NCBI GenBank assembly: GCA_942492175.1
Contig: CALODR010000009.1
Coordinates: 168,964-232,963 of the forward strand
Direction of reading: 5' to 3'
DNA: 64,000 bases
Origin: an uncultured bacterium
GTDB taxonomy: Bacteria > Acidobacteriota > Aminicenantia > UBA2199
Part shown: positions 3,394 through 62,486 of the stretch, in pieces
Layout of the letters: every line of letters begins with the position of its first letter
Position numbering within the stretch: position 1 is the stretch's first letter
Notes under the pieces: generated by a model
Databases searched by the model: none
What the model saw: only the letters and a program-made list of their open reading frames with translations
Told to the model about the DNA's origin: nothing
Program-made: the position numbers and the translations under genes

Positions 3394-4257
3394 TTACTTG
3401 TAAGATGTGATGTATTTTTTGAGGCCGGATTTCCAGTGGGTCATGATGTTTAATTCCTGGTCTTTGAGGTGTTTGTTTTCGAGGACTGAGTAGTCGGGAC
3501 GTTTTACTCCCCCACTGAATTCGCCGGGAGCTGCTTTGTTAACTTTAACGCCGTTATCTTTTATTCTGAAGATCTCTTTTGCGAACTCATACCAGGAACA
3601 TTCTCCCTCTGCGGAAACATGGTATAAACCGTATTCTGCATTTTCTTTGATCATATGGACGATCTGAGTGGAAATTTCTTCTGTGAAAGTCGGGGTCAGG
3701 ATCTCGTCGTCAACGACTTTAACCTCACCTTTTTCCTCACCGATCTTTAGTATCTTGTCGACAAAATTATACCCCTTATCCATACATATATTTTTTCCAT
3801 ATATTCCTGAGAGCCTGAGGATATAAAATTTTTTTAGGATCGAGCTTACAAGATATTCACCCGACAACTTCGAATTTGCATATACATTCAGAGGATTGGG
3901 GATGTCCGATTCCATGTATGGTTTTTTCTTTGTTCCGTCAAATACATAATCGGTGCTGATGTGCAATAGAGGTATCTGAAGTTTACTGCATGCATAAGCA
4001 AGATTTGCCGCTCCCAGGCCATTTACCTTAAAGGATTTTATGGGATCCTTTTCACATACTTCTACATGATGGAAAGCTGCTGTATTAATTACCATATCCG
4101 GAGCAAGATTGGTGTTAATAACTGAACGTATCGAATCTCTATCTGCAATATCAACATCTTTAATTGTGAGTGGCGCAACATCAAATCCATCGTTTTTTAA
4201 TACTGAACTGATATCACTGCCCAGCTGTCCGTCCGCACCTGTTAATGCAATTTTCAT
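3394..4257 (-). CDS. rfbD: dTDP-4-dehydrorhamnose reductase
   Basis: 287 aa, RmlD-type; N-terminal Rossmann motif MKIALTGADGQLG and a YAxSK-like segment. Confidence 0.8.
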   Translation of the reverse strand: MKIALTGADGQLGSDISSVLKNDGFDVAPLTIKDVDIADRDSIRSVINTNLAPDMVINTAAFHHVEVCEKDPIKSFKVNGLGAANLAYACSKLQIPLLHISTDYVFDGTKKKPYMESDIPNPLNVYANSKLSGEYLVSSILKKFYILRLSGIYGKNICMDKGYNFVDKILKIGEEKGEVKVVDDEILTPTFTEEISTQIVHMIKENAEYGLYHVSAEGECSWYEFAKEIFRIKDNGVKVNKAAPGEFSGGVKRPDYSVLENKHLKDQELNIMTHWKSGLKKYITSYK

Positions 4258-4825: not shown

Positions 4826-4916
4826 TTCAGTTGCCTCTTATTAGTGGATTTTGAAAACCAGCAAAACTAAATTTAGCAGGATATACTGTTTTTTTCAATA
4901 TATTAGAATAAATAGA

Positions 4917-5678
4917 TCAGATCTCGGTCTTTGGGCAAATGTCTTTGTAATCACAAAAATTACAGATATACCCTTCATTCTTATAAAAATAACCTTTCTC
5001 TATATTATCTATAACAAAATTTATTATTTCGAACATCTGTTCCATATCAACATCTTCAGTACGAATCGAGTGTTCCTGATGTTTTACCCCTGTTGCTTTC
5101 TTCGAGTAGAGGATCTGGAACTTTAATTCTTTTATAAATCCCCCCACGCTCTCCTCGAAAAGGAATTTATAAATATACATTTGAAGGAATGACTTGTTCA
5201 CTCTGTCTCTTGACCATTTTGCAGTAGTTGTTTTAAAATCGGTCAGGGAAAAATCTTCCTCAACAAGGTCTATTATTCCCCTGATTTTCACCTCTGAATC
5301 GGGCAGGTTACACTCTATCTCTTTTTCGGTCATTAAGGGTTTTATTCCCGGTGCAATTTCTTTTGCAAAATACTTGATGAAAGAGAGACCTCTCTTATAA
5401 GATTTTTCCCTGTTCTCACTCCATACTATTTCTGAATTCTGTGACATTTTCTCAAATGTGTCTGTAAAATATTGTGATATCTCAATAATGTCCGGCGTTT
5501 TTCCTTCTATTTTCCTTTTCAGAAAAAAATCGGCAGCATCATGGAAAATAACTCCGAGGAAAACTTTATCGTTTATCGGAGTCCTTATATTTTTTATATA
5601 ACTGAAATAATATTGCCGGGGGCAGTTTCTGTATGTTCTTATCTGATTAAATGAGATATATCCTTTCGGCAGAGACAT
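4917..5678 (-). CDS. Cas4-like PD-(D/E)xK nuclease with four-cysteine Fe-S cluster signature (DUF83/Cas4 family), orphan
   Basis: N-terminal YRNCPRQYYFSY (the Cas4 CPR motif). GIIDLVEED...DFKTT matches a D-ExK core. Three C-terminal cysteines (CNFCDYKDIC) complete a C...CxxCx5C pattern. No cas genes or CRISPR array in the window. Confidence 0.6.
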   Translation of the reverse strand: MSLPKGYISFNQIRTYRNCPRQYYFSYIKNIRTPINDKVFLGVIFHDAADFFLKRKIEGKTPDIIEISQYFTDTFEKMSQNSEIVWSENREKSYKRGLSFIKYFAKEIAPGIKPLMTEKEIECNLPDSEVKIRGIIDLVEEDFSLTDFKTTTAKWSRDRVNKSFLQMYIYKFLFEESVGGFIKELKFQILYSKKATGVKHQEHSIRTEDVDMEQMFEIINFVIDNIEKGYFYKNEGYICNFCDYKDICPKTEI

Positions 5679-5711
5679 AAAAAAAAACCCTTGGAGGGGT
5701 ATGTGAGGTAA

Positions 5712-5978
5712 TTATGATCCGGATTTGTTAAGAAGGGCTGTTAATCTGGATTTGTATCTTGAAGCAGTTTTTTTATGAATTGTACCTTTTGTGTTTGATT
5801 TATCAATAACTGATATAACCTTTGGAAACAATGCTTTAGCTTCCTCTATTTTTCCGGCTTCTATCTCTTTTTTGAATTTCTTTATTCTATTCTTCATTTT
5901 GGTCTTATTCATTTTGTTGATCAGTCTCTTCTTCTCATCCCGTCTGTACTTCTTGATAGCAGATTTGTGGTTTGCCAT
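5712..5978 (-). CDS. rpsT: 30S ribosomal protein S20
   Basis: MANHKSAIKKYRRDEKKRL... is a canonical S20 N-terminus. GGAGG ribosome-binding site 5 nt upstream of the Met at 5978; the ORF-track start at 6029 is an upstream extension. Confidence 0.85.
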   Translation of the reverse strand: MANHKSAIKKYRRDEKKRLINKMNKTKMKNRIKKFKKEIEAGKIEEAKALFPKVISVIDKSNTKGTIHKKTASRYKSRLTALLNKSGS

Positions 5979-6022
5979 ATTTTCCTCCGAATTAGAGGAT
6001 ATGATACAAAAAAACACACTTA

Positions 6023-6622
6023 TTGTCAATGTCAGTTGGCAGGTTATTCTACATGAATTGCTTTCCGGGTGTATTTGACAGGGAGATTGAAAATCTCTAT
6101 CATATTACTATGGCTGGACATTCTATAATTATTATCATTTTTGCATTTCTTATACCTGTCGGAGCTATTTCTATCGGGGGACTCTATTTCTTCGAAAAGA
6201 AAAAAGGGAGAAATATTACCACCCGTTTCAGGGAGTTCAGTAAAAAATATAAAATAACTGAAAAAGACCTCAGATCTGTGCCCCGTGTTCTGATCCCTGA
6301 GAACATAAATGTAAGTGTTAAATTGAGTGAAAGTGAGTATACAAGGCTTAAGGGGAAGGTTGTTGATATGTCACTTTCAGGTTTCAGAGTAAGCTTCAGA
6401 TCTCCCTTCAGGGTGATCCCCGAGGATCAGATATTCAGAAATGTGTTAATTGTGACACCACTGAACAGAATCAATGTCAGATCATTAAAAATCGTGAGAA
6501 TAGAGAATTCAGTAAAGAAAGTGATCTTTGCACTTTATATAAAAGATATAGATGAAAATGATTATACAGACCTTAAGAATATAATGATATATTTTGAAAA
6601 ATTTTCGAAAAATGGAAATTAA
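6023..6622 (+). CDS. PilZ-domain protein (putative c-di-GMP receptor)
   Basis: RxxxR (RSVPR) and D/NxSxxG (DMSLSGFR) PilZ motifs after an N-terminal transmembrane helix. The start is uncertain (6023, or the Met at 6110). Confidence 0.55.
   Translation: MSMSVGRLFYMNCFPGVFDREIENLYHITMAGHSIIIIIFAFLIPVGAISIGGLYFFEKKKGRNITTRFREFSKKYKITEKDLRSVPRVLIPENINVSVKLSESEYTRLKGKVVDMSLSGFRVSFRSPFRVIPEDQIFRNVLIVTPLNRINVRSLKIVRIENSVKKVIFALYIKDIDENDYTDLKNIMIYFEKFSKNGN
6076..6104 (+). promoter_or_regulatory. Sigma70-like promoter candidate (TTGACA-17-TATCAT) in the rpsT / PilZ divergent region
   Basis: TTGACA at 6076-6081, a 17-nt spacer, TATCAT at 6099-6104. It would give a near-leaderless start at the ATG at 6110. 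Confidence 0.3.
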
Positions 6623-18851: not shown

Positions 18852-20858
18852 CTATAATTCCTTCTGGAAAACTTTGGAATTTTTGAATTCATCTTCGATC
18901 TTTATAAATATTATTTTTTTACCTTTAGTTACCTTTTTTGAAAGTTTAAAATTTTCACTCCCGGAGTCATTGATCTTATCGATAGGATCAAGCGGGAACC
19001 ATTTCTCTCCTGTAAATGAATACAGGACTCTTAAAATAACAGAGTTTTTGTCTGATACTCTGAAGGAAAGAAATTCTCCTGTTGATTGAAAATCTGAAAG
19101 AACAGGTGCTGTTGAATCAATTGTAAACTTTCTGGATATTTCAGTGTCTGTTTTGAAAGTGTCAGGTGAGTTTGATAAAGAGTCATCCGCTGTAACTTTC
19201 AGGATATAATCGCCATCTTCATATAATTCCGTATTAATTTCTGTTTTTGATGTAGTGATATCTTCCCTTAAACTGAACCATTGTTTACCGGAGATTTTTT
19301 TTAGGGACAGAGAGAACTTTAGTTCATCATCGTTCGGATCATCGGAATCCCATGAAACATTCAATTTATTCTTGGCTGTAACCGCAGGTTTTTTTTTGTC
19401 AGTATTTTTACTCTCTTGATATGGTATCCTTACCCTTATTCTTCTGACCTCAGGTTTGAGGTTCTTCTGAGCATAGAAGAAACGGAATCCTGATATTCCC
19501 GGATTTTTATTTTCCGGTGAAGAATTGAGAATTACCTTTATCTGAAAGTACTTGTATCCTGAACGGTTAATATTTGAATTGTTCCCGTCACTGAAGGGGG
19601 GAGACCATTCTGTCCATGTTGGGTCAGGTGAAGCAGTATTCCCCGATCTTACAAAAAGAGAAACCGAGGTGGATTTACCATTAATGGGATCCCAATAGAG
19701 TCTTCCGGCATTGCTCTGAATACCAAGGTTGAAAACCTCGGATATGTACGAGCCATTTGAAGAGGCAAAATTATCGAGTTTTATTATAGATGATGTGTTA
19801 TTGTAGATTATTGTAAAACCTTCTGCCCCGGGGAGAATTCTGAAAGGCTGGGCAGATTCACCTTCATAGATCATTGAATAGCTGCCGTTTTTTTTCACTC
19901 TGTATATCCTGCCGCGGTTCCCGGTGCCGATAAGAACTCCTCCGTTCTTTTTATCCGGTGCAAGAGAATAGATCTGTTCATCAGTTGATGACCACAATTC
20001 TTCGATCTCACCCCCTGGATGCCTGAGGTATAATGCACTCTTGTTTTCCGGAATAATTTTTACTTTCGGAAATGTTAAGGATGTCATTTTACCTGAACCT
20101 GAATTTCCTTTTTTCACCTCTTTTGAGGCAGAGAACCAGATATCGCCTTCATCATCTCCGTAAATACCGTTGATCTCCTCAAAAGGTGTGTCATACAGCA
20201 CCTGGCTCTTTCCGGAATTTATTCTGTAAAGGATTCCGTTCCCGCCGCTTCCGGCAATGATGGAATTATCTGCCGAGATAAACAAAGACATGATATGGGT
20301 GTCGCCTGAAAATAATTTCCTGGAGTTTCCGCTTTTATCGATTTTGTAAACACCTCCGCTTCCTCCTACCGCACAGATGATATTACCTGACCTGTCTTCC
20401 TTTAAATCCCAGATGTATTTTTCGTCGGGGTTAAAAAATTCTTTTGATTTTTCAGGACCGGATATACGAAATAATTTCCCTCTTGGAGAGGATGCGGCAT
20501 AAATGAGTTTGTCTGAACCGTACAATACAGCATAGATGTCAGGCTCTTCGGCCTTAAACATTTCTGTTACTTTTCCATCTTTACTGATTCTGAAAAGTGA
20601 AGCGTTATGCCCCGTCCCCAGATAGATATCTCCTGATATGGAAATGTCACATCCGAGATAGTACTCTTTGCCGGGACCTTTTATCCTGGAGCTTTTCAAT
20701 GAGATGAACAATTCTCCGTTATCTTTCAGCCCTGTGTCGACAAATGTCCCTTTTTCAAAACTTGAGTAATCTGCAACATCCTTCTTCCTGACCTGAACGG
20801 AATGTAGGATTGATAGTGAAAGTATGATCATAAATATGATCGATATCTTTTTGTTCAT
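18852..20858 (-). CDS. Secreted beta-propeller repeat protein with C-terminal Ig/Fn3-like domains
   Basis: Signal peptide; repeated strand motifs (GKLFRISG, GGVYKID, GILYRIN, GDIWFSAS, GRIYRV); beta-sandwich C-terminus. Confidence 0.4.
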   Translation of the reverse strand: MNKKISIIFMIILSLSILHSVQVRKKDVADYSSFEKGTFVDTGLKDNGELFISLKSSRIKGPGKEYYLGCDISISGDIYLGTGHNASLFRISKDGKVTEMFKAEEPDIYAVLYGSDKLIYAASSPRGKLFRISGPEKSKEFFNPDEKYIWDLKEDRSGNIICAVGGSGGVYKIDKSGNSRKLFSGDTHIMSLFISADNSIIAGSGGNGILYRINSGKSQVLYDTPFEEINGIYGDDEGDIWFSASKEVKKGNSGSGKMTSLTFPKVKIIPENKSALYLRHPGGEIEELWSSTDEQIYSLAPDKKNGGVLIGTGNRGRIYRVKKNGSYSMIYEGESAQPFRILPGAEGFTIIYNNTSSIIKLDNFASSNGSYISEVFNLGIQSNAGRLYWDPINGKSTSVSLFVRSGNTASPDPTWTEWSPPFSDGNNSNINRSGYKYFQIKVILNSSPENKNPGISGFRFFYAQKNLKPEVRRIRVRIPYQESKNTDKKKPAVTAKNKLNVSWDSDDPNDDELKFSLSLKKISGKQWFSLREDITTSKTEINTELYEDGDYILKVTADDSLSNSPDTFKTDTEISRKFTIDSTAPVLSDFQSTGEFLSFRVSDKNSVILRVLYSFTGEKWFPLDPIDKINDSGSENFKLSKKVTKGKKIIFIKIEDEFKNSKVFQKEL

Positions 20859-23078: not shown

Positions 23079-25489
23079 TTAAAATTTAACATTTGGTTGT
23101 CTTTCAAATCTTGATACTTTGAACTCAATAGTTCCAGGTTTCAACCTTGCCAATATTCCTCCGTGTTCAGATGTAAAAAATAATTTCGTTTTGAACAGCC
23201 TGTATCTTAAAAGTACTTCCCTGTCAGGGAACCCGAAACTGTTCTTGTATCCAAGTGGAAATACAGCGTTATCAGGAAGGCACATCCGGAGGAAATTATA
23301 TGAAGAAGATGTTGCTGAACCGTGATGAGGGACTTTTAATATACTGCATTTGAGATTAATTCCATATTTTTTTATTACAGCATTTTCCGCATTTGTCTCT
23401 ATATCTCCTGTAAACAGGACAGTGTGGTCTCCTGTTGTCAGTTTAATAACCTGCGAATGGTCATTTTTTGTTGAAAAAGGTTCCAGAACTTTGAATGGAT
23501 ATAAAATTTCGATTAGTGACCCACCGTAACTTAATCTGAATCCGGAAGCTACCTTCCTTAACTTTGTTGAGTCTCTGCATTTTTCTGACAAGGTGTCAAA
23601 TATACTGCTGTTATCCGGTGCAGATGAGATCCAGACCTCTTTGGGGCTGAGAATGTTGACTATTTCATTAATACCTCTGCAGTGGTCGGGGTGGTAATGA
23701 GAAACAGCGATCCATCTGATTCTGATCCCCTTTTTAAGAATAAACGGGAGTACGATCTGTTTCCCCACCTCAAAATCACCGAACCCTGAACCACCTCCGT
23801 CTATAAGAAGAGAATCACCTCCCGGGAAAACAATAATATGGGAATCACCCTGCCCGACATCGAGAAAATATATCTCAGGATGGTCCGGATTATATGGCGG
23901 CCCTCTTTGAATTGCGAGGAAGAGGAGTGAAGCGGTCAAAAAAAATAAAAAAAAATTAATATACCTGCACCTGGATAAATAACACAAAGAAAAGAAAGAA
24001 ATGAAAAAAAACAATAGTAATATTACTGATGGGGGAGGCCTGAAGATGGAAAGACCTAAGACTTCTGAAAATGATCCTGCCAGGAAGAAAAAGGTTTTAA
24101 GCAATGTGTCTGAAAGGAAGATTAAAGGATCTGCAGGTAGAATGGGGCAGATCGAAAGGGGAAGCAGCGGGAGAGAGAAAATCATAATTGCAGCAGTGAG
24201 GGGAAGAAGAATTATCCCTGAAAGGATACCGGTGAAGGAGTATCTCAAAAAAAAGAAAAGAGAAACCGGGATGGAGCAGACTGCTGCATTGAGGTTGGCA
24301 GCAGCAGCTTCTTTTAAGTATGAGTTCTTCTTTTTGTCATCTCGGAAGAATATTTTTCTTCCGGAAATTATTCCGGCAGTTGTCAGAAAAGTGAGATTAA
24401 AACCGGGATCGAGAAAACTGCAGGGGTTGATTATAAGGAGAATCAGGCCGGTAAATGAGAGAATGTTGACAGGATCCGCTCTGAGGTAGAATATCTTTGA
24501 TATCGAAAACAGAACTGCCATCAAGACTGCTCTCTCAGCAGATACTTTGAACCCTGTTATGAGTAGGAATAGCAGGAGTATGGATATTAAAATCAGATAT
24601 CTACCCCTCTCTTTTATCCTTGTTCTTCTGAGTATAAACAATACTAATAGTGCAATTATCCCTATGTGAGCACCAGATATTGCAAATAGGTGGAATACTC
24701 CGGTTTCAAGGAGAATCTCTTTAACTTCAGATGAGATCCGTCCTCTGTCACCGAGAAGAAGAGCCTCCAACATCTGCCCCTCTCTCTCCAATCCACCCCC
24801 GTTTTTCAGGTACTCCTTTTCGATCAGTTTTCTTACTTTTCTCTTATCCATCCTGCTGTACGGAATAAAATCCCGGAATTTTTTATCCTTTCTATAAATA
24901 GGGCGGATTTGGAATAGCCGGAGAAGTGGATACCGTTTGCAAGGAGATACGATTCAGATTTTGGAGTAAAAAAATTCAGAGAAGGCCGTGATTTTCTGAT
25001 GGTAGTATCTACTATGACCGTGTCCCCCATACATAAATAACCCAGGTCCCCGTTTATATTTATCTGTAAAACAATACCTGAACTGTTTACATTCCCTTTT
25101 TTATAGATATTCTCTGTTCTTAAAATTATTGTTGATTTGGAATCTCCTATTACAGGGAAGCTTAGAACTTTCCCTCTTATTTTTAAATATTGTTCACTTT
25201 CTATATCCAACGATTTTTTTGCATAGAATATTTCCCTTTTTTCCAGAAACATATGACCGATAAGAAGGGAAATGGCAAAAGATGTTAAATATATTGAAAA
25301 AGTGTATTTTTTAAAAATGAAAGATGTAAGCGAGATACCAGATGTTATAATTACTGCCGGGCCTATAAGATCATCGCAATAATTAGCGATATTAAGCAGG
25401 TTTAGTGTTGTCAGACTTGTGATGAACGGAATTACAAACAATTTGGCCATATAAATGATAATGACTGGAAAATTTGTATATTTCAACAA
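23079..25489 (-). CDS. comEC: DNA internalization-related competence protein ComEC/Rec2, split into two overlapping ORFs by an apparent frameshift
   Basis: The N-terminal fragment (24833..25489) carries the DUF4131/OB region. The C-terminal fragment (23079..24851) carries the competence membrane domain (FAISGAHIGIIALL) and a metallo-beta-lactamase domain (HYHPDH, VPHHGS). The frame change falls in 24833-24851, where there is a T4/A4 run at 24837-24840. Confidence 0.7.
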
Positions 25490-25510: not shown

Positions 25511-26603
25511 TTACTTGATTTTTTTTAGTGCTGCTTTAATAAACTCGAAAATATCCCCGTCAAGAATTTTCTGGGTATTGCCTATCTCCAAATCGGTTCT
25601 GTGGTCTTTGATGCTCTGATAGGGGTGAAGGACATATGAGCGGATCTGGTTCCCCCAGGCTATGTCACCTTTTGAGTTCTCCAGTTTATCTTTCTCCGAC
25701 ATCTTTTTTTTCATCTCATTATCGTATAGCTTTGACATCAACAATTTCATTGCCCGGTCCCGGTTCTGATGCTGGGAACGTTCACTCTGGCATTGAGCAA
25801 CAATGTTTGTCGGAATGTGGGTGATCCTTATGGCCGAATCGGTCTTGTTTACGTGCTGTCCCCCGGCACCGGAAGCTCTGTAAGTATCAACTCTCAGATC
25901 TTTCGGATCAACTTCGATCTCAATAGAGTCATCAACCTCCGGGTATACGAATACAGCGGCAAAAGATGTGTGGCGTCTTTTATTTGAGTCAAAAGGGGAT
26001 ATTCTGACCAGTCTGTGGACACCTATCTCGCGTTTAAGGTATCCGAATACATAGTCTCCTTCGATCCTGACAGTAACACTTTTTATTCCTGCCTCTTCAC
26101 CTGCGAGAATTTCTATTATCTTCGCATTAAAATCCATCCTCTCTGCGAATCTCAGATACATTCTAAGAAGCATTTCTGCCCAGTCCTGGCTCTCAGTTCC
26201 ACCAGCTCCCGGATGGATCGTGAGAAAAGCATTGTTAATATCGCTTTCTCCGCTCAAATAATTCTGTGTTTCAGTTTCATCAATAAACTCTTCAAACTTG
26301 TTAAGTTCAGATTCAATTTCGGTGGCAATATCAGGATCTTCCTCTGCAAGATCGAAGTATGTTTCCATATCGTCGATTCCTGAATTAAATTTGTCCTCTA
26401 CTTTCAGCTGGTTCTCAAGTCTTTTTTTTTCTTTAAGAAGAGGAGCTGAACGTTTCGGGTCGTTCCATATAGATGAATCGAGGAATTCTTCCTCTATCTC
26501 TTTTAACCGGGTGTGCTTTTTCCCGAAGTCAAAGAAACCCCCTGAGATCTTCAGCTTTCTGCTTCAGTTCTCCATATTTGCTTTTGAGTTCCGGGATTTC
26601 CAT
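25511..26603 (-). CDS. prfB: Peptide chain release factor 2 with programmed +1 ribosomal frameshift
   Basis: The reading frame from the ATG at 26603 encodes 24 aa ending ...RGFL and then TGA. A +1 shift at CTT TGA C continues into the RF2 body (GGQ motif in YRASGAGGQHVNKTDSAIR, SPF-containing domain). Total about 363 aa. Confidence 0.85.
26528..26543 (-). other. prfB: RF2 recoding site: SD-like AGGGGG followed by the CTT TGA C shift site
   Basis: The minus strand reads AGGGGGTTTCTTTGAC, matching the conserved prfB autoregulatory frameshift cassette. Confidence 0.8.
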
Positions 26604-26751
26604 ACTTCAATTCTATATTTTTTTTACTCGTGGGTCAACTGTGATTGATTCTTAAGGATTTGTTTTCTGTCAGGTGGATAATGCCGGGATCTTTGTTAAT
26701 AGTTGATGTATTAGCTATTTAATTTTAAAATAAATCTTCCGGGAGAGCATC

Positions 26752-27238: not shown

Positions 27239-30001
27239 CTAAAATGTATTTTTTCCCGGTGATCTTTCGCAGATGTTTTTGTGGAGGCAGTACCTGCAGA
27301 GTTTCTCATCCTCAGTCTGTGTGAAATGTATTTCAGGATCAAATATATCTGTTAGGATCGATGAAAGTATTGTTTCAAATTCTGCGAGAATTGATCTTTC
27401 AAAGAGCTCTTTTCCATTAAGTTTGACAAAAGTGAGTTGGTCTGAGAGGGTTTTAAACGGGTAGATAGCCAGCTTAAACCCATGGTCCAGGATCTTATTA
27501 TTTTTTAAAAGGAGTGCATAGAACATCAATTGGAAGACCTCTTTATGCTTTATAAAATCGATCTCACTCAATTCCTTTGTGATCTCAAGTTTTTCAATTT
27601 TTCCTGTTTTATAATCAATGATTCTGGTAATTTTTCCCTTAGTGTCGATCCGGTCAATGATCCCTTTTAATTTAACCGACTCCTTTCTCCCTTGAGCGTT
27701 GAATTCAAATGCCACTTCCTCTATTTTGTTCTCAAGCGAGTTAATATTAAAAGGGAGTTCCTCCTCTTCGTCTGCCAGAAACTTCCCCGTGAATTTTTTG
27801 ATGACCTCGAAGGTGATCCTGTTGAGCCCGGTTTCGGTCTCAACTATGTTTTCATCCAGAAATGAATCGTGAATAATTTTGTCGATATGTTCTGAACTGA
27901 GATTTGAATAGAAATTTCTATCCAGACTTATATTTGCTTTTTTCTTATAGATCTTTTCGAGTACTTTGTGGACAATGGATCCGAATTTAGCAGGATCATG
28001 GGCATCTTCTGTTTCTGACTCTTCCTTCAGCCTCAATACATATTGGAACCAGAATCTGAGGTGACACTCCATCCAGGTCCGGAGAGAGGTGGGTGAGAAT
28101 GTCATTTTCCTGATCTTTTCCAGGTTTTCACCGTTCTTTTTTACCGTGATCAAAGGCGGGAGGCCTATATTAATGCTGAAATCCGCGCTCACCTGATCGA
28201 TGTCCGCTTTTTTATTGTATTCTCCGTATTCAAGTAGGATCTGGTCGATGAACCGGCTTCTCTCTCCCGCCATCGCTCCGGGTTTTACTCCCGAATAGAG
28301 AAGTGTAATATTGCGGCTGTTCGACACCATCCTGTAAAAATGGTAGGCAAAAACGGCCTCCCTTTCTCCGAAAAATGGCAGTCCGAACGATCGTCTGACA
28401 TCCTGAGGTATAAATGTCGGCGTATGTTTCCCCTTCGGGAATTGATCCTCATTCATGGAGAGGATAAAGAGATGTTTAAATTTAAGATTCTGCATTTCCA
28501 GAACACCCAGGATCTGCAGACCTTCCAGCGGTTCACCGGTAAATGGGATATGGACCGATCCGATCAGGTCGCTGAACATCCGGTGAAATCCCCTGAGGCT
28601 GACCGGGTCTCCGGTTCTTCTGATGATCTCATTTAGTTTTGCTGCAAGGGTATAAAAACGGTGGATGAATTCCTTCTCGATCCCCGACAGGCTTATCTTC
28701 TCCTCGGCAACGGCTTTTCTTACCCGATCAATAATGGACAGGAATTTTTCAAGGAATACGGTCGAGTCCTTATTCATGGATGCGATAATCCCCAACAGGC
28801 CGGAAGGTTTTTCGGGGAGGTTGACAAAGGTACCTGTCCCATTTTTGACCGCTTTATAAAATCCGTTGAGTTCTTCATCGGAAATGATTTTTATATAGGG
28901 GTGTTCCAGGATCTTCAACAGGTCTCTTTTTGTCCACTGACGGATTTTGCTGTTGTGAAGTAATATCAGTGATTCATACAGCGAATAGACGGATGTTTGT
29001 CTGAGTGGATATCCGATGGAAATGTTTCCCTTTCCGGTATTGTCCGGGAGTGAGTTGAGTATCGGGAAAAGGAGGGTTTCATCGGGAAGAACGACAGCAA
29101 TGTCTTCAAGGGTTTCACCCCGGTCAAGTAGTTCTGACAGCCTGAGGCCGCAGTACTTTGCCTGGGCTATATCCGATGTGGTCTCAACAATCCGGATTTT
29201 TTTCTCTCCTGACAACCCTTCTCCGGGTGGGTAGACCAGAGACTCGGCGTGTAAAATTGGATTGTATTTTCTGTGAAACATCCCGGCTTCCTGTTCAGGA
29301 TCTTCAGCGAAATAGGGATCAGATTCATTTATTATTTCTGCAATACCGGCTTTCTCCAATTGGGACAGTATCTCAAATTCCGATCCTGACAGGGCATTGA
29401 ATCCGGCAAATATTATTTTGTTCCACCCTCGGTCGGTGATCAGATTGGTTTTCTCAGCCACCTGTCGGAATGCCATCCCTTCGTATGCTGAATGATGGGA
29501 TTCCAATGATACCCTGAAAGGCTCATAGATACTTTCCAGATCGAGCCATAGGTCCAGGTACTCTTTCTTGATCTCCGGAGAGTTGTAGGGCTCCGGATTT
29601 TCAAGTCCTTCAAGGCCCCTCAATGCACTGAAAAGACTTTTTGTATCCGCCAGGTTTTTATCGATCTCATTGAGATCGGAAAGAATGATCTTCCCGGTTT
29701 GAAAAAAATTTTCCATTGAGATGTTTTTCTCGGGGAGTTGATCCCGATAGGTATTGTACAGTTCAAAGATAAGTTCGTATGTTTCCGGTATCTCGAATCC
29801 CGAACAGAGGCTGATCAGGTCATTGATCGAATAAACTTCGGGAGACCATAATGGTGAGTCTGAAAGATTGGCAAGGTGGTCCCTGAAGTATACAGCGGAC
29901 CTTCTATTCGGGAAGATAAACGCAAGATGGCGGATATTATCTTTATACTTCTCGAAATATCTGTCAGCTATGAGTTTGAGGAATCCTCTCTCCATGTTCA
30001 C
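27239..30001 (-). CDS. addB: AddB-like helicase-nuclease subunit (inactive helicase-like body, C-terminal PD-(D/E)xK nuclease with cysteine cluster)
   Basis: 920 aa. C-terminal nuclease motifs GIIDRID...IIDYKTG and the CRYCLHKNIC cysteine cluster. Immediately downstream of the addA-like gene with a 2-nt gap. Confidence 0.6.
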   Translation of the reverse strand: MNMERGFLKLIADRYFEKYKDNIRHLAFIFPNRRSAVYFRDHLANLSDSPLWSPEVYSINDLISLCSGFEIPETYELIFELYNTYRDQLPEKNISMENFFQTGKIILSDLNEIDKNLADTKSLFSALRGLEGLENPEPYNSPEIKKEYLDLWLDLESIYEPFRVSLESHHSAYEGMAFRQVAEKTNLITDRGWNKIIFAGFNALSGSEFEILSQLEKAGIAEIINESDPYFAEDPEQEAGMFHRKYNPILHAESLVYPPGEGLSGEKKIRIVETTSDIAQAKYCGLRLSELLDRGETLEDIAVVLPDETLLFPILNSLPDNTGKGNISIGYPLRQTSVYSLYESLILLHNSKIRQWTKRDLLKILEHPYIKIISDEELNGFYKAVKNGTGTFVNLPEKPSGLLGIIASMNKDSTVFLEKFLSIIDRVRKAVAEEKISLSGIEKEFIHRFYTLAAKLNEIIRRTGDPVSLRGFHRMFSDLIGSVHIPFTGEPLEGLQILGVLEMQNLKFKHLFILSMNEDQFPKGKHTPTFIPQDVRRSFGLPFFGEREAVFAYHFYRMVSNSRNITLLYSGVKPGAMAGERSRFIDQILLEYGEYNKKADIDQVSADFSINIGLPPLITVKKNGENLEKIRKMTFSPTSLRTWMECHLRFWFQYVLRLKEESETEDAHDPAKFGSIVHKVLEKIYKKKANISLDRNFYSNLSSEHIDKIIHDSFLDENIVETETGLNRITFEVIKKFTGKFLADEEEELPFNINSLENKIEEVAFEFNAQGRKESVKLKGIIDRIDTKGKITRIIDYKTGKIEKLEITKELSEIDFIKHKEVFQLMFYALLLKNNKILDHGFKLAIYPFKTLSDQLTFVKLNGKELFERSILAEFETILSSILTDIFDPEIHFTQTEDEKLCRYCLHKNICERSPGKNTF

Positions 30002-30003
30002 AG

Positions 30004-33000
30004 TTATACCTCTATGATCTTCCCGGTGCTCAGGTAGAAGACCATCCCTTTCACTTCCCTGTATCCCATATCCAGGATCAGTGATTTGTAATTGTTCATC
30101 TGTTCCCGGTCCAAATCGGACTCACGGCCTGTTTTGAAATCGATCACTCTGACCGAGTCACCTTTAAGAATTACCCTGTCGGGACGGTATGTTCCGGCCT
30201 TCGTTAAGATCGGTTGTTCCGTGAGATGTTCCCCTTCTCCATAGAACCAATCCCGGATTGTTTCGATCGTGAACATATCTTCGATCAACGCCCTGATCTC
30301 ATCGGATTCCTGCCGGTTTATCCTACCGGAATAAATCATCCTTTCCAGGATCATCTCCGGTGTCTGCTCTGTACTGATTTTGGATAATATTTCATGAACG
30401 GTTATCCCCCGGTCGATTTTTTCCAATATTTCATCCGGGTGAAGGGCCCAGAACTTCTCTGAACGTTCTCTGATCGTTACTCTGCCGCTCCAACGGGTGG
30501 ATATAAGATCTTTGTCCTTAATGATCTCCAGAGATCTTTTATCTTTTTTGATTCCCGATCTCGCGAGCGTTCCTTTCTGAAATAATGGCCCCTCTGTGGT
30601 GTCGAAAAAATCTGATCCGCTGATCTCTTTTAATAATTGCCCATTGCGGAATCCGTTTTTTTTTTCTTGTTTATCTTCAGAAAAAATGAAGAGGGCCTCT
30701 TTTGCCCTTGTGCATGCTACGTAGAACAAATTCAGATCATCCAGTTCCGACCTGTATTTTTCTTCTTCCCAGGCGTTCGAGAACAATGAATATTCAAGTG
30801 ATTTCTTCCCTTTGATAAAGTATGGGGGGGGATATTCTTCCAGCTTTAATGATTCAGTCTCAGGTTTCATCCACAGGTTCTTTTCATTTCTGTCCCGCCA
30901 GTCCGCATAAGGGATGATGACCACCGGGAATTCCAGACCTTTGGCTTTGTGGATGGTCATCAGGGTCACTCCGTTTCCATTCTCGGGAGTGGGAACACTG
31001 TATTCGGTCCCGTAATCTTCCCACCACTCGAGAAATTCAGGGATACTGCCCCCCTCTTTTTCTGAAAAATCTTTTACCATATCCAGAAAAGCAGTCAGGT
31101 ATCCGGCAGATGAAAGTTCAAGGGTGTTTCCGAGGTCAAAGATCCTGATCAGTTCTTCGGCTGCTTCATAAATTGGCACTCTGATCAGTCGGTTTCCGGA
31201 TGAGATAAAAGAGGATACCGGCTCAGGAAGTTTTATACTCTCTCGGTCCATGAAGTATTGTCCGGTTTCCTCTTCGCTCCAGATATTCCCGGCAAAATAT
31301 TTAGAGAGAAAGGAGAGGATATCAGCAAGGATATGATCCTGTGTATTATCCGCAGTGTACTTCAGGAGGCTGATCATAAAAAGGGCAACCGGATTTCTGT
31401 AAAGAAGCAGAAGTTCCGGGGAGATGATACTTTTACCGTTTGCGATCAGGTGAGCGGCAATCTCTATACCGGGTGCCTTTTTGCGGGTAAGGACAGCAAT
31501 GTCGGATAAAGAAAATCCGGAATCGAGGCACTTTTTAACGATCTTTTCCACCTGTTCGGGAACCGTTTCCTCACTGTCCTCTTTTGATATGAACCTCAGG
31601 GAGACAAACCCGCCGCCGGTTAACCTGCAGTTCTGCTCAGCCTCTTCGTAGATCTTCTGGATGAGATCATTCGGTTTCACCAACTCTTTAACCGAGCTGA
31701 ATAATTTATTATTAAAATTGACAATGTTCTCCCTGCTTCTGAAATTATCCGGCAGTTCTTTTGAATGAACTCCCCCCCAGGGGAGAAATTGCTGATGGAT
31801 CTGTTTATCCATAATATCAGTTTCTCCGCCCCGCCATCTGTAAATGGACTGTTTCGGATCGCCGACCCCGAGATTGAGTTTTTCTTCAGATACACTGTTT
31901 TCGATCAGGGGGAACAGGCTGTCCCACTGCATCATGGATGTATCCTGGAACTCATCGATCATTATATGTTCGAAGCTGTCGCCGAGGATATAATAAATGA
32001 ACGGGATATCTCCCTCCCTGATGATCCTGTGAACATTTCTGGTCAGATCGTATATCGGTACTACATTGAATTCTGATTTGTATTCGTTCAGATATTTTCT
32101 GATCCTGCTTATCAATCCGAGGAGGTAAATATTTTCAAAGATCAGAAAAGCACTGAATGCAGTTTTGAATTTTTTATTGTAGATGGAGATTATTTCCGAG
32201 TGGATCAATTGAAGTTCTTCTCCGAAGGTCCCTCCCATTTTATCAGTCAATTCATCGGAGCTGTTCTTAGCCAACCATTTTTCTTCTGTAAATCTGGAGG
32301 TTGGGATCGTTTCGCTGACTGCAAACAGGTTAATCCCTGCCAGTCTGTTCAGATATCCTGCTGCCCCTGAATATCCGAAGGCAAAATCTTTCAGGCTGAA
32401 CCCATTGTCCTCTATCAGTTTTATCCCTTTTTCTCCCAATGCTTTCATTTCCCCAGAGTATTCCATGAAGATACTTTTCAATCTGCTCGAGATCCGGAGG
32501 AAGTCTCGAAGCTCCATTCCGGCGATATTTTCCAAATCGCTCTCTTTTCGTTCACGATTGATCTCTGAGAGTATAGGGATAATGTTCGTTTCAACATTCC
32601 AGGATTTTTCTCTGTTGATCCGGTCCATAACAAATTCCAGTATGATATTTGTTGTATCGGGATCGACACCAATATCGGAAAAAATATTTTTTATGATGTA
32701 GTTGTTCAGGCGGTTTAAATTCAGTTCAACATCAAAGCCTGCGGGGATATCTGTTTCGTATGTAAAAGAGCGGACCAAGCGGCTGATGAAACTGTCGATG
32801 GTGGTGACTGCAAAATTCGAGTAGCTGTGGAGAATCTTTTTCAGAACCTGTCCAGCTCTCTTCTCAATGTCCTTTAGAAGGGGCCCCTTTTCGATAAGAT
32901 TATTTTTCAACTCTTCATTTTCACCCTTTGAAAGCTCTTTCAGAGAACGGAGGATCCGTTCTTTCATTTCGGCGGCGGCCTTATTGGTGAAAGTGATGGC

Positions 33001-33117
33001 CAGGATGTGCTTGAATTTATCCGGTTTATCATTCTGTAGTGCCAGGGCAAGGTATTCCAGCACCAGCTGGTATGTTTTCCCTGAACCGGCCGAAGCCCTG
33101 TAATTGATAAAGCCCAA
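30004..33117 (-). CDS. addA: AddA-like ATP-dependent helicase/nuclease (UvrD/PcrA-family SF1 helicase plus C-terminal RecB-type nuclease)
   Basis: Walker A ASAGSGKTY; UvrD-type motifs (TFTNKAAAEM, VDEFQDT); C-terminal PD-(D/E)xK (RPDRV...VIDFKTG...Y). 1037 aa. Confidence 0.7.
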   Translation of the reverse strand: MGFINYRASAGSGKTYQLVLEYLALALQNDKPDKFKHILAITFTNKAAAEMKERILRSLKELSKGENEELKNNLIEKGPLLKDIEKRAGQVLKKILHSYSNFAVTTIDSFISRLVRSFTYETDIPAGFDVELNLNRLNNYIIKNIFSDIGVDPDTTNIILEFVMDRINREKSWNVETNIIPILSEINRERKESDLENIAGMELRDFLRISSRLKSIFMEYSGEMKALGEKGIKLIEDNGFSLKDFAFGYSGAAGYLNRLAGINLFAVSETIPTSRFTEEKWLAKNSSDELTDKMGGTFGEELQLIHSEIISIYNKKFKTAFSAFLIFENIYLLGLISRIRKYLNEYKSEFNVVPIYDLTRNVHRIIREGDIPFIYYILGDSFEHIMIDEFQDTSMMQWDSLFPLIENSVSEEKLNLGVGDPKQSIYRWRGGETDIMDKQIHQQFLPWGGVHSKELPDNFRSRENIVNFNNKLFSSVKELVKPNDLIQKIYEEAEQNCRLTGGGFVSLRFISKEDSEETVPEQVEKIVKKCLDSGFSLSDIAVLTRKKAPGIEIAAHLIANGKSIISPELLLLYRNPVALFMISLLKYTADNTQDHILADILSFLSKYFAGNIWSEEETGQYFMDRESIKLPEPVSSFISSGNRLIRVPIYEAAEELIRIFDLGNTLELSSAGYLTAFLDMVKDFSEKEGGSIPEFLEWWEDYGTEYSVPTPENGNGVTLMTIHKAKGLEFPVVIIPYADWRDRNEKNLWMKPETESLKLEEYPPPYFIKGKKSLEYSLFSNAWEEEKYRSELDDLNLFYVACTRAKEALFIFSEDKQEKKNGFRNGQLLKEISGSDFFDTTEGPLFQKGTLARSGIKKDKRSLEIIKDKDLISTRWSGRVTIRERSEKFWALHPDEILEKIDRGITVHEILSKISTEQTPEMILERMIYSGRINRQESDEIRALIEDMFTIETIRDWFYGEGEHLTEQPILTKAGTYRPDRVILKGDSVRVIDFKTGRESDLDREQMNNYKSLILDMGYREVKGMVFYLSTGKIIEV

Positions 33118-52926: not shown

Positions 52927-54648
52927 TTATTTCCTTTTTACTTCTATCACCTTGTTTGTATCATCATCTGAGATCATATCTTCTGCATGGATGAGTATGT
53001 TGTAATCATTTTGACTGATCATTCTCAGAGGAATTCTCAGTTTTGTCCTATTCTTGATGATTGAGATCTCTTTTGTGTCACTTTTTATTTCTTTCCCATC
53101 CATATCTATTATTTTGACAGTAATTCTAAGAAGAGCAACTTCTTTATCTTTTACTTTTTTAAGTTTAAATTCACTTAATTCAAATTCCAGTATGCCGTTG
53201 CTGAAGGAGGCGGAACTTATCTTTATTGCTTTCTTTTCAACTCCTTTTATAATTCCCAGCCCCATGTTGTAATTTATCAGGGCGAAATGGGGACTAAAAC
53301 CCTCTTTGTTCAAAATTTCAATTTTCAAGATGTTATCGGGAACTTTTATCTCTGTTTTTTTTATAATAGGTTTATTGCCAGTTATGGGCATATGGATCTT
53401 ATACAGGTCGAGATCAGTGTTACGGAAATGATCAGGTATTGAAATCTTAAAAACAGTTCCTGATCTTTTTTTTTCTTCTTTAACTATTTTTGCATCATCA
53501 ACTGTTACAGGCAATTTAAACATAGGATTCTTGGATATCATGTTCAAAACAACAAGCTTTTTCTCAAAATCATTCAGACTGAGGTATCCCCGGGACTTCT
53601 CCAGATTGCGGATTGTATGTATGCTTATATTTTTTCGTTTTGCTCTGACATCTATCTGTAAATGCCCTCCTTTCATGTCATCGGGGTTACGGAAGGTCAA
53701 TTCATAATAAGCTTTATGAACATTTGTTATTTTGTCATTTATTGATTTTGTGTCTCCTGTAAAGTATCTCCCCCCACTTAGTGAGGATAATACTTTTAGA
53801 AAAGTTTCTCCTGATTCTGAATCAGTCCCTCTCCCTCCCGTAGGGTTGATAAAGAAAAGAACTGCTCCGCTCCTAAGGAGGCTGCCGGCCATTTTACTTG
53901 CATGAGTGTCACCTCTGGAATATGATGAGTTTGATATCCCTTCTGAGAATAAGTATATAAATTTTGTCCCGGCTATATTTGCTATTGCATAATAAAGGGA
54001 TTGGAATGAAGATGAGAATTGTGAGCTTTTATTGGACAAATAGCGGGTTTGCTGGATGAGAAAGAACATTCTTTCGTCATGCTGATATTTTGTTTTTTCT
54101 CCTTCGCTATTATCCACACCTGAGCTGATACTCCTTTCGTTGTCTCTTCCTTTAACTCTTTTCTTTATAATCGTATTTATTCTCTGCTTGTCGTTTGTAG
54201 GACCCCCCAGGTAAGACAGTCCCTGAAAACCCTCGATCTTGAATAAAACAAATTTTGTGTCGGGTCCACTTCTGTTGACCAATTCTTCTGCGATTGCTTT
54301 TGATTTCATGATTGACGTGGATTTTGAAAGAGCAGTGTCAAATACAAGAACTATTACTTTCTCTTCTTTTCCGCTTTTAAACCATTTCGGTTTTTCATTA
54401 TTATCATTGAGGAATTTCCTCTTTATAAAATTGAAATCACTGACCTTTTTATCATTCACATACAGTTCAATTTCGTTTTGATTCAGGTCTGTGACGGAGT
54501 TTCCTCTTGCATCAACTGCATAGATAGGGACGATCCACTCTTCAACAACAATATTTTCAACAATTTGTTTCTCGGAGTTGATATTCAATGATAATGCCAT
54601 TATCAATGTGACAGCAATAAGGGATGTGATACTAAATTTTTTTGTCAT
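52927..54648 (-). CDS. Secreted hypothetical protein, possibly vWA-like
   Basis: Start at the Met at 54648 (GGAGG ribosome-binding site 9 nt upstream). Signal peptide. Weak vWA-like segment (KVIVLVFDTALSKS). No confident family. Confidence 0.3.
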   Translation of the reverse strand: MTKKFSITSLIAVTLIMALSLNINSEKQIVENIVVEEWIVPIYAVDARGNSVTDLNQNEIELYVNDKKVSDFNFIKRKFLNDNNEKPKWFKSGKEEKVIVLVFDTALSKSTSIMKSKAIAEELVNRSGPDTKFVLFKIEGFQGLSYLGGPTNDKQRINTIIKKRVKGRDNERSISSGVDNSEGEKTKYQHDERMFFLIQQTRYLSNKSSQFSSSFQSLYYAIANIAGTKFIYLFSEGISNSSYSRGDTHASKMAGSLLRSGAVLFFINPTGGRGTDSESGETFLKVLSSLSGGRYFTGDTKSINDKITNVHKAYYELTFRNPDDMKGGHLQIDVRAKRKNISIHTIRNLEKSRGYLSLNDFEKKLVVLNMISKNPMFKLPVTVDDAKIVKEEKKRSGTVFKISIPDHFRNTDLDLYKIHMPITGNKPIIKKTEIKVPDNILKIEILNKEGFSPHFALINYNMGLGIIKGVEKKAIKISSASFSNGILEFELSEFKLKKVKDKEVALLRITVKIIDMDGKEIKSDTKEISIIKNRTKLRIPLRMISQNDYNILIHAEDMISDDDTNKVIEVKRK

Positions 54649-54727
54649 TAAGTTTACCTCCAATATTTAGTAATACGGAAAGTTTTAAAATATCTGGAAT
54701 TATTCCCTAAAGTTTACTGAATTTTTC

Positions 54728-59881: not shown

Positions 59882-62486
59882 ATGAAGAGAAGTTTGCTGT
59901 ACTTATTATTATGGTGCATCTTGATATTACATTTACATGCATCAGTTAAAATGGTTGGTTCTTTAGAAGAGCTAAAAGGATTGAATATAAATTGTCATCC
60001 GAATTATTCAATTATTGTTGAGTTTCCAAAAGAGATAACAATTCTGAAGGTTGTACATGATAAAGACGATCAGAAAAATTGGATAGTCGATTATGATCTG
60101 AATCTTTTATGGGCTCAGCCGGATAAGTTAAGCAGTCCCGACTGCTCTTTTAAAGTTTCTACAGATATTTATGAAAATATTGATCTCAGTTTGAGAGTTG
60201 AAAAAGACCCAAAAAACCTGATTCATACAATTGTTCTAAAAAAGGAAGTTTTTAAATTAAAAGAGAAACAAAATGATTGTATTGATTCAAAGATTAGAAC
60301 TTTTAAAGCGGATAGGGTTTTAGGAAATGAAAGTGATGAGAGTGAATTAGTAAAGTTATCTACAATTAAACAATCTGAGCTTGAAGAGAGAGAACAGTCT
60401 AAGAGCACTGTTGATATTGAAAACAATATTGTGGATAAAGATATTAAGCACAAAGCACACAAATTAATATCTCCATTTGATTTGGAAACTTATTTTTCTC
60501 TATTGGGAGGGACACAGAATTTTGAAGATTCTTCTTTTTCAATGGAAGGAGAATTTATCGTAGCAGGAAAAAACAAAAAAGGTTTTTTCTTTCAAGGAGC
60601 TGGTAAGGTTTCCATAAATAAAATTAGCAATCAATTTGGGTTCTCACTCGGATGCGGTTTTGAACCAGGAAAACTAGGGCTATTTATGTTTGCAGATACC
60701 TTAATGCAAAAAACAGGTGAGGAATTTGATTCAACTACTCATTTTCAGATAAGGCCAGGGATACGCTATAGATTGTCGAACAAGTTTAGCTTTGCCGGGT
60801 TTTTTGCATTCCCGATTGGACCCTGGAAATATACCGGAGTTGAAGTTCCAAGTTTGTCAGGATTCGGTTTTTACAATAAAGCTCTTGCACATGGTGGGAT
60901 TGATCTTTCTTTTGGTCTCGATAGATTGTTTGTTGATATGAGAACATTGATTGCTGAAGGGTCCGCATTTGGTATTGATTTCAAGGCAGGTTATGAATTG
61001 ATAAAAAAAATATTTGTGACGATTAATTATGTGTATCAATCTTCAGGTGATCATGAATATTTTAATGGAATTTCAAGTACAAGCAGGATTGGTGTCGGGC
61101 TTAATTTTAATATGAGAAATCTTAGGCAAGATGATGATAAACGGTTAATATTCAGACCTGATTACCCCATGGTAGTGGTGGCAAAAAAGGAGATAGAGGA
61201 AAGTGGATCAATTTCTCCTGAGATTTCTCTTGCCGGTACGCCCACAACAGGTTATGCTCCTCTTAATGTTTCCTATCAGGCAACATTGAAGGGATTTCAG
61301 GGAGAGGTTGAACTAACCTGGTTTTTTAATACTGTGTATTCATCAGCATCAAATAATAGAGATTGTGCTTTTATATACACTTCCCCTGGCACATATGAGT
61401 GCTATGTTATAGGGACTGATGAAAGGGGTAATATAGTTACCAGCAATATTGTAGCCATAACGGTTCTAGATGTTACTACCGAGGATGGAGAGTTTACTAT
61501 ATTATCAAGTGTTAAAGAAGGAGTTGGATCGATTAATCCTGAGGGATCAACAGTAGTAAAATTTGAAGAAGATCAGAGGTATGAAATTAATCCCGGGAAT
61601 GGTTGGTATATTAAGAATGTCTATGTTGACGGGAAAAGTATTGGTACTGTATCGGAATATGTTTTCAAAAAAATTGATCGGAATCATACTATTGATGCTG
61701 AGTTTACTGATACACAACAAATTACATATACTGTAACTGGATCGGTAAGGAATAATCAGTATGGAACTATAGATCCGGTTTTAACCCAGGTTGCAGAAGG
61801 TTCATCAGTTACATTGAATTTCTTTCCAGAAGATAAAAACAAACAAACAATCAGATATTGGATAAATGGTCAGGTTTATAATGATGTGGGATCCGGGTCT
61901 GTTACGATCAACAATATTACTTCAAATCAGAATGTTGAAGTTGAGTTTGACTGGATTTATTATGATGTAACAATCACATTGACATTATTGGAAGGTGGGA
62001 GTGGTTCTGTTGATCCCGGTACCGGGGTTTTTACTTATAAAAGTGGGGAGAATCTAACATTTAATTTTAATCCAGAAACTACATTCTAGAGTTGATAAAG
62101 TCATTTTGAATGGGAATAATAAGGGAGATATAACTTCTCTAAAAATATATAGTATTGGCCAGGATGAAGATATAAAAGTCTTTATAATTAGAAAGAGTCA
62201 TCCAGTAGAAGCGATTATTGATGGAGGAGGTTGTGATTGCAGAATAACTTCTTCAATAGGTCAGTCAGGGACGGGGGCTTATCAGGTTTTTCATGGAGAT
62301 AACTTAACATTTTATTTTGAACCATTAAATTCTTCTCAAACTTATTGGCTTGGAGTTCAGGATGGAGGGAAATGGAGCGTTATGATATTGCCGACCAATT
62401 ACACATTCGAGAATGTTTCGGGAGATAACAATTATTTCAGGATAAAATGTGCTGACCCGGGTGATCCTCCTCCCTTTACTCCCTGA
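59882..62486 (+). CDS. Large secreted surface protein (N-terminal beta-barrel-like region, PKD domain, tandem ~60-aa beta-sandwich repeats); frame interrupted at ~62087
   Basis: Signal peptide. PKD-like GYAPLNVSY...YTSPGTYEC. Three tandem repeats (xINP/DPGxG...YxIxxVxVDG/NG...VEF). The repeat pattern continues in ORF 62106..62486 in another frame after TTC TAG. Confidence 0.5.

Follow-up and report, generated by a model that had tools for sequence, protein, structure and literature searches.

A predicted stand-alone RecB-family Fe-S nuclease encoded next to rpsT in Aminicenantes

When a Cas4-like nuclease gene is found on its own in a chromosome, should it be taken for a stray part of a defence system or mobile element, or for a gene of the host? 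This question is raised by a 253-aa ORF in the stretch of DNA analysed here (64,000 nucleotides, hereafter the window), which the initial annotation described as an orphan Cas4-like Fe-S nuclease lying between rfbC/rfbD and rpsT. The placement was correct, all of these genes being on the minus strand, and the features concerned are as follows:

3394..4257, minus strand: rfbD (dTDP-4-dehydrorhamnose reductase), after rfbC; PF04321, 272 bits
4259..4825, minus strand: rfbC (dTDP-4-dehydrorhamnose 3,5-epimerase), 91 nt downstream of the nuclease; PF00908, 203 bits
4917..5678, minus strand: nuclease CDS, 253 aa, predicted stand-alone Fe-S PD-(D/E)XK nuclease (PF12705, RecB-family, Cas4-like); ORF and Pfam
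5679..5711, minus strand: spacer between rpsT and the nuclease, 33 nt; sequence
5712..5978, minus strand: rpsT (ribosomal protein S20), predicted first gene of the transcription unit; PF01649, 91.4 bits
6001..6029, minus strand: promoter-like TTGACA-17-TATCAT upstream of rpsT, 11/12 matches; consensus scan, pattern match

Residues and family of the nuclease

The three strings on which the Cas4-like call had been built were all found in the 253-aa translation, YRNCPRQYYF at residues 16-25, GIIDLVEEDFSLTDFKTT at residues 134-151 and CNFCDYKDIC at residues 239-248. The nuclease core described at that time as D...ExK is present and conserved, although with a triad of D137...D147-F-K149 it follows the DxK variant of (D/E)xK and not ExK. 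QhxxY corresponds to Q166-x3-Y170, and the RecB-type motifs D, (D/E)xK and QhxxY are all represented. The cysteines, C19...C239-x2-C242-x5-C248, make up the four-cysteine ligand set of Cas4 type (one N-terminal residue plus CX2CX5C). Among 53 homologues with 43-89% identity, C19, H46, E118, D137, K149, Q166, Y170, C239, C242 and C248 were invariant, and D147 was kept in at least 90%. Each catalytic and cysteine residue, D147 included, was present in 48-49 of 49 syntenic loci, and the RecB-type motifs (D137, D147-F-K149 and Q166-x3-Y170) were kept in 49 of 49. Judged by these residues, the active site is intact.

The protein is a single domain, and PF12705 (PDDEXK_1) was its best family, with 95.7 bits against a Pfam gathering score of 22 and a match running from residue 8 to 249 and from profile position 2 to 247 of 247. 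In comparison, the Cas4 models covered only the C-terminal half of the nuclease, and their scores stayed below the curated cut-offs, at 39.2 bits for TIGR00372 (cut-off 65) and 20.8 for PF01930 (cut-off 22.7). Since it falls under both, we do not count the nuclease as Cas4 proper. The Cas4 and Aga_Cas4-like models of PADLOC gave weak matches (1e-10 to 6e-6), and the phage family PHROG 69 'exonuclease' gave a match of 3e-22, better than any Cas4 match. [quoted passage not shown] 2017, PMC5704561), and it is to this group that the present protein is assigned from its sequence, as a predicted stand-alone RecB-family Fe-S nuclease. What stands of the initial annotation is a stand-alone Fe-S PD-(D/E)XK protein of Cas4/AddB/RecB type, while membership of Cas4 proper does not; placement by a profile search in a non-Cas4 housekeeping nuclease family had been named there as grounds for giving up the call, and the preference for PF12705 goes part of that way. 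This type of protein is already well known, and public annotations read 'PD-(D/E)XK nuclease family protein'. Our literature search returned nothing linking rpsT or Aminicenantes to a Cas4-like nuclease, or rpsT to 'RecB family exonuclease'.

Linkage to rpsT, inheritance and expression

A word-indexed search returned 138 homologues of the nuclease. Among the matches listed, the homologues were about 250-260 aa long, apart from a small number (219-294 aa) that were partial or somewhat longer, were named 'PD-(D/E)XK nuclease family protein' or 'RecB family exonuclease', and came mostly from MAGs of Aminicenantes or Acidobacteriota. The contigs of six relatives (44-89% identity) were inspected, and in 6 of 6 the nuclease came after rpsT in the same orientation, with varying genes around the pair. 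Scanning one genome per species gave 61 loci, and S20 linkage was counted by tblastn wherever upstream DNA was available and nuclease identity was 27% or more. In each of the 55 non-redundant related loci, which were labelled almost without exception as Aminicenantes or Acidobacteriota, S20 was found directly upstream of the nuclease and in the same orientation, and the distance from the rpsT stop to the nuclease start ranged from 4 to 66 nt (median 9). In a long-read Aminicenantes MAG (locus L059, CAVXAL010000003.1, 3722..4808), the rpsT ORF extends to 199 aa and the nuclease is a 164-aa C-terminal ORF, which looks like a frameshift or an assembly indel over the junction of the two genes.

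The linkage was also examined from the side of rpsT, by a metagenome scan with an S20 alignment that yielded 80 loci. The nuclease lay downstream in 7 of 7 loci whose S20 was at least 55.8% identical to that of the window, and was absent from all 73 loci with S20 of at most 53.6% identity, 62 of which had at least 800 bp of downstream sequence. These counts, 7/7 and 0/62, make the rpsT-nuclease pair a sharp marker of one clade, in which it is apparently fixed, contrary to what a variable gene of defence or mobile kind would show. Pairwise distances of S20 and of the nuclease were correlated (Mantel r 0.84, with 0 of 2000 permutations as high), the pattern expected of a pair inherited together. 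dN/dS of the nuclease was 0.041 and 0.049 against the two closest relatives, with rpsT, rfbC and rfbD in a similar range, and these values point to strong purifying selection. The GC content of the nuclease gene (0.348) lies close to that of rpsT (0.326) and the PilZ gene (0.342), the window as a whole having 0.386. We believe that the nuclease is, as far as sequence comparison can tell, an inherited core gene and not an orphan or mobile one; the earlier framing as an orphan of defence or mobile-element kind is contradicted by its fixed position after rpsT, its co-divergence with S20, a dN/dS of ~0.04 and its neighbour-like composition.

The initial annotation had named rpsT as a neighbour but did not see that the conserved link is to this gene and not to rfbC/rfbD. 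Only some of the clade loci have rfbC/rfbD after the nuclease, whereas rpsT always precedes it, and we therefore rejected them as functional partners. No helicase, annealing-protein or other repair gene was found as a conserved neighbour. In many Aminicenantes relatives, a gene of the LarE-family PP-loop type (TIGR00268, 206-216 bits) lies directly upstream of rpsT (for example L004 3828..4637 and L006 3865..4674, with about 30 more related loci), preceded by tmk in 19 loci and by archease and RtcB in 7-10 loci, and a small PilZ-like gene often comes after the nuclease (18 loci). The older gene order was likely tmk-larE-rpsT-nuclease-pilZ, while in the subclade of the window a divergent PilZ gene (6023..6622) stands upstream, and rfbC/rfbD come downstream. 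The gene of about 269 aa upstream of rpsT had been suspected to be holB because tmk precedes it; this was rejected, since it encodes the LarE-family protein, with no evident link to the nuclease.

The claim that the window has no CRISPR array, cas or phage genes agrees with our scans, in which no tandem or spaced direct repeats resembling a CRISPR array were found in the 64 kb, no Rfam families or tRNA were detected in the window, and no cas or phage domains were matched by Pfam in the 39 window ORFs scanned, a set that leaves out short ORFs of Cas2 size. Neither in the window nor in six annotated related loci does the nuclease lie beside cas1/cas2 or a CRISPR array. The scanned ORFs represent ordinary cell functions, such as M16 peptidases, SucCD, ComEC, RF2, a DEAD-box helicase and transporters, among others. 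Three large ORFs had no Pfam match at E <= 1e-5, namely 18852..20858 (minus, 668 aa), 52927..54663 (minus, 578 aa) and 59882..62089 (plus, 735 aa), the last of which has a 23-nt imperfect direct repeat (59717 and 59837) just upstream. prfB (RF2; main ORF 25511..26368) carries a classic programmed +1 frameshift, with a short upstream frame (MEIPELKSKYGELKQKAEDLRGFL) in 26369..26610 (minus) that ends at CTT TGA C (CTTTGAC at about 26534), preceded by AGGGGG, the next frame leading into the PCRF domain. ComEC (23079..25489, minus) seems to be split into two overlapping ORFs, with DUF4131 at 24833..25489 and Competence plus Lactamase_B at 23079..24851; the two ORFs may reflect a genuine split, another start site or a frameshift.

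From their spacing and from the promoter-like match, we infer that the nuclease gene is co-transcribed with rpsT, and the strong promoter-like site at 6001..6029 is the probable promoter of the unit. A weak promoter-like site was also seen before rfbC, at 4898..4870. The spacer between rpsT and the nuclease contains an AAGGG ribosome-binding site and a 4-bp GC stem (5687..5700) running into a T9 tract that ends at the nuclease ATG. A terminator scan found no canonical terminator between the two genes, the stem of the spacer hairpin (RNAfold -4.4 kcal/mol) being too short to count as one. The stem and T-run are kept in the closest relatives (L001, L002, L008, L010 and L011), with stem sequences that differ and remain complementary over 4-5 bp (CCCC/GGG, GCCCC/GGGGC, GCCC/GGGC and CCT/AGG), while in more distant relatives the gap is just 4-12 nt and has no hairpin. 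This suggests that the stem and T-run may be a weak attenuator that holds nuclease levels below those of S20; in the closest relatives, the hairpin and U-tract would lower read-through into the nuclease gene. The rpsT operon would most likely tie expression of the nuclease to growth.

Fold, proposed role and alternatives

Sequence searches of solved structures, with the single nuclease protein and with a 53-sequence profile, gave nothing significant, and the likening of the nuclease to known enzymes is therefore one of fold only. The fold-match list comprised the AdnA nuclease module (18.3), Dna2 (17.7), the putative exonuclease 3l0a (17.3), ACE1 (15.8), MGME1 (15.5), RecE (15.1), type I-C Cas4 (13.1), Exo5 (12.9), SSO0001 Cas4 (12.7), AddA (11.3) and AddB (9.7), and the top match by Foldseek was ACE1 (6.7e-8, TM 0.60-0.65). 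The fold superposes on the nuclease modules of AdnA, Dna2, ACE1 and Cas4, and the strong structural matches were all DNA nucleases of the RecB/Cas4 superfamily, with 11-19% identity.

In Dna2 and Cas4 the active site is covered and can be entered by single-stranded DNA only. Residues 37-111 of the present nuclease form three long helices, which would arch over the active site so that a single DNA strand alone threads in, and homologous structures suggest that the Fe-S cluster would staple the two terminal helices together, through C19 in the N-terminal one and C239, C242 and C248 in the C-terminal one. For ACE1, too, a cover that admits only ssDNA to the active site has been proposed (PMC12094033). 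The enzyme would be a Mg2+/Mn2+-dependent nuclease acting on ssDNA ends or 5′ flaps, most likely in the 5′ to 3′ direction, a polarity and substrate borrowed from homologues at those same 11-19% identities. Since substrates vary within the family, this part of the proposal is uncertain, ACE1 being an ssDNA endonuclease (PMC12094033) and the Solo-Cas4 of M. mazei preferring supercoiled dsDNA and being active without its cluster (PMC12501428).

On balance we think it probable that the gene encodes a vertically inherited stand-alone PF12705 nuclease of the RecB family with a four-Cys Fe-S 'staple', and that it is a core gene of Aminicenantes co-transcribed with rpsT. The nuclease probably trims DNA ends in ordinary repair; its place would be in housekeeping repair or recombination, with RecJ-like or Dna2-like end trimming beside an AddAB-like machine. 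Such a role leaves the universal link to rpsT unexplained.

Two other roles for the protein were weighed. As a solo Cas4-like nuclease of defence, it would degrade invader DNA, or would serve an Argonaute or CRISPR system from another part of the genome by processing its DNA guides or prespacers. The best Foldseek match to ACE1, which is an Argonaute-associated enzyme of the Cas4 family, and the weak PADLOC matches fit such a role, and some solo Cas4 proteins have been tied to anti-plasmid immunity (PMC12094033). We nevertheless find it unlikely, since the nuclease reaches neither curated Cas4 cut-off, the 64-kb window and the six annotated related loci yielded no defence, cas or pAgo genes, and proteins whose best family is pfam12705 have been reported without CRISPR-Cas association (PMC5704561). 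The clade-wide fixed position after rpsT, the co-divergence and the low dN/dS are also unlike the patchy spread that is typical of defence genes.

The constancy of the rpsT operon would be accounted for by a role directed at RNA and connected with the ribosome, such as the trimming of rRNA precursors at their 5′ ends or a part in RNA turnover. In its favour, rpsT and the nuclease stay together as every other neighbour changes, one subclade has genes for RNA repair (archease and RtcB) just upstream in the same orientation, and the PD-(D/E)XK fold includes 5′-3′ RNA enzymes (Rai1/DXO), to which Foldseek gave weak matches (TM ~0.3). All strong structural matches, however, were DNA nucleases, and no Cas4/AddB-type Fe-S nuclease acting on RNA was among the matches. 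We set aside RtcB and archease as support, as they are present in only about 10 of 59 loci, with the LarE-family gene between them and rpsT. Gene order around rpsT often unites genes that are functionally unrelated. A role of this kind is, in our judgement, quite unlikely, and that the invariant operon means an enzyme acting on RNA or the ribosome, for example in 5′ maturation of rRNA or in RNA decay or repair linked to the ribosome, is very unlikely; if true, a function on RNA would be new to Cas4/AddB-type Fe-S nucleases.

Relatives outside the clade and comparison with known systems

A separate AddAB system had been noted in the window at 27239..33117, and an AddAB-like pair was indeed found there, more than 21 kb from the nuclease. 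For the product of 30004..33117 (minus), Pfam gave UvrD-helicase domains and a weak match to PDDEXK; that of 27239..30001 (minus), which is AddB-like, has 920 aa with a C-terminal PDDEXK_1 domain (125.8 bits) and a tail reading CRYCLHKNIC. Both subunits score well under the NCBIfam equivalog cut-offs for AddA, AddB and RecB, and the pair is therefore regarded as a divergent variant. The AddB-like subunit shares with the nuclease the Pfam domain, a GIID...D-x-K signature and a CxxCx5C tail, but it is paired with a UvrD-type helicase subunit, unlike the solo nuclease. BLASTP of the nuclease against the pair gave E values of 0.04 (AddB-like) and 0.32, and we rejected a recent duplication of either nuclease domain; given also its length and its helicase partner, the AddB-like protein is not the source of a recent copy.

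The nuclease is neither fused to nor in an operon with an SF1 helicase motor of the kind used by AddAB, AdnAB or RecBCD, its neighbours being rpsT and rfbC. In mycobacterial AdnAB (AdnA) and in Dna2, the nuclease is a domain of a large helicase-nuclease, whereas the present protein stands alone without a motor, and sequence identity to these modules is 14%. ACE1 (PDB 9iab/9iac) is a stand-alone protein of similar length (about 266-269 residues in the solved chains) whose active site is buried in a narrow ssDNA channel (PMC12094033). It is, in contrast, co-encoded with long-A pAgo and confined to cyanobacteria, while no Argonaute gene accompanies the nuclease in the window or related loci, and the two proteins are 13-15% identical. 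Compared with CRISPR-associated Cas4 (TIGR00372/PF01930; SSO0001, type I-C Cas4), the nuclease is about 50 residues longer, has a larger helical arch and has no cas1, cas2 or CRISPR nearby in the 64-kb window.

A profile search of 1.84 billion representative proteins gave 10,217 matches at E <= 1e-3 and only 38 at E <= 1e-30. The scores fall steeply past about a dozen clusters (50% identity) above 190 bits, which correspond to the rpsT-linked clade. Three proteins of the next tier (about 127-137 bits) were inspected, and all had phage or mobile-element surroundings, with an integrase and a cI/Cro-like HTH pair, DUF932, HNH and runs of small same-strand ORFs. In a phage collection, the best match was the 'RecB-like protein' of Geobacillus phage TP-84 (1e-24, full length, 25% identity), whose gene has a single-strand annealing protein gene immediately after it, and Cas4-like proteins of Campylobacter phages also matched. 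Given the settings of these nearest outsiders, the closest relatives outside the clade are phage-type recombination exonucleases acting on DNA ends.

The distant homologues from Eisenbacteria MAGs (25-28% identity) have RadC and DUF932 as flanking genes and no rpsT beside them. A module recurs in L060-L065, in which a gene of unknown kind (about 225 aa) is followed by the nuclease, a RadC-like JAB gene and DUF932. It occurs twice in one MAG, and the arrangement is typical of integrative or conjugative elements. Homologues at this level of identity, from Eisenbacteria, Latescibacterota and Acidimicrobiales, were left out of the clade because they have no rpsT link and occur in RadC/DUF932 or other contexts.

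That the gene is no host gene at all but part of a cryptic element, left over from a phage or mobile-element module for recombination (exonuclease with annealing protein), would suit the integrase, cI/Cro-like pair, DUF932, RadC and small-ORF runs beside the nearest out-of-clade relatives, the coupling of the TP-84 homologue with an annealing protein and a PHROG 69 match that beats every Cas4 match, but with no integrase, annealing protein or phage gene nearby in the window or related loci, and with the position, composition and selection of a host core gene, it is extremely unlikely, being largely refuted for the present state and concerning at most an ancient origin.

The reading as an inherited Aminicenantes core gene thus means that this candidate 'orphan Cas4' is no longer to be classed with defence genes and mobile elements. 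No new kind of system is revealed by it; it would represent a small and sharply bounded subfamily of stand-alone Fe-S RecB-type nucleases, vertically inherited as an Aminicenantes core gene. The rpsT-nuclease pair can serve as a gene-order marker for this uncultured lineage, and the enzyme, with 253 aa, is compact and amenable to characterisation.

The nearest known counterparts are the phage exonucleases of pfam12705, such as TP-84 RecB-like, which are about 250 aa long, have motifs and a four-Cys set like those of the nuclease, align over the full length at 23-28% identity and, like it, are without CRISPR association. An annealing-protein gene adjoins the exonuclease gene in TP-84, as in a phage two-component recombinase, but neither the window nor any of the six annotated related loci has this arrangement. 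The known members of pfam12705 belong to phages or mobile elements or have a helicase fused or linked to them, whereas the rpsT-linked clade has a chromosomal core gene without an annealing-protein or helicase partner. The Aminicenantes nuclease appears to have a phage-type fold that became fixed in the host chromosome, possibly through ancient capture, and offers a clean example of a phage-type Cas4-like exonuclease fold established as a host gene.
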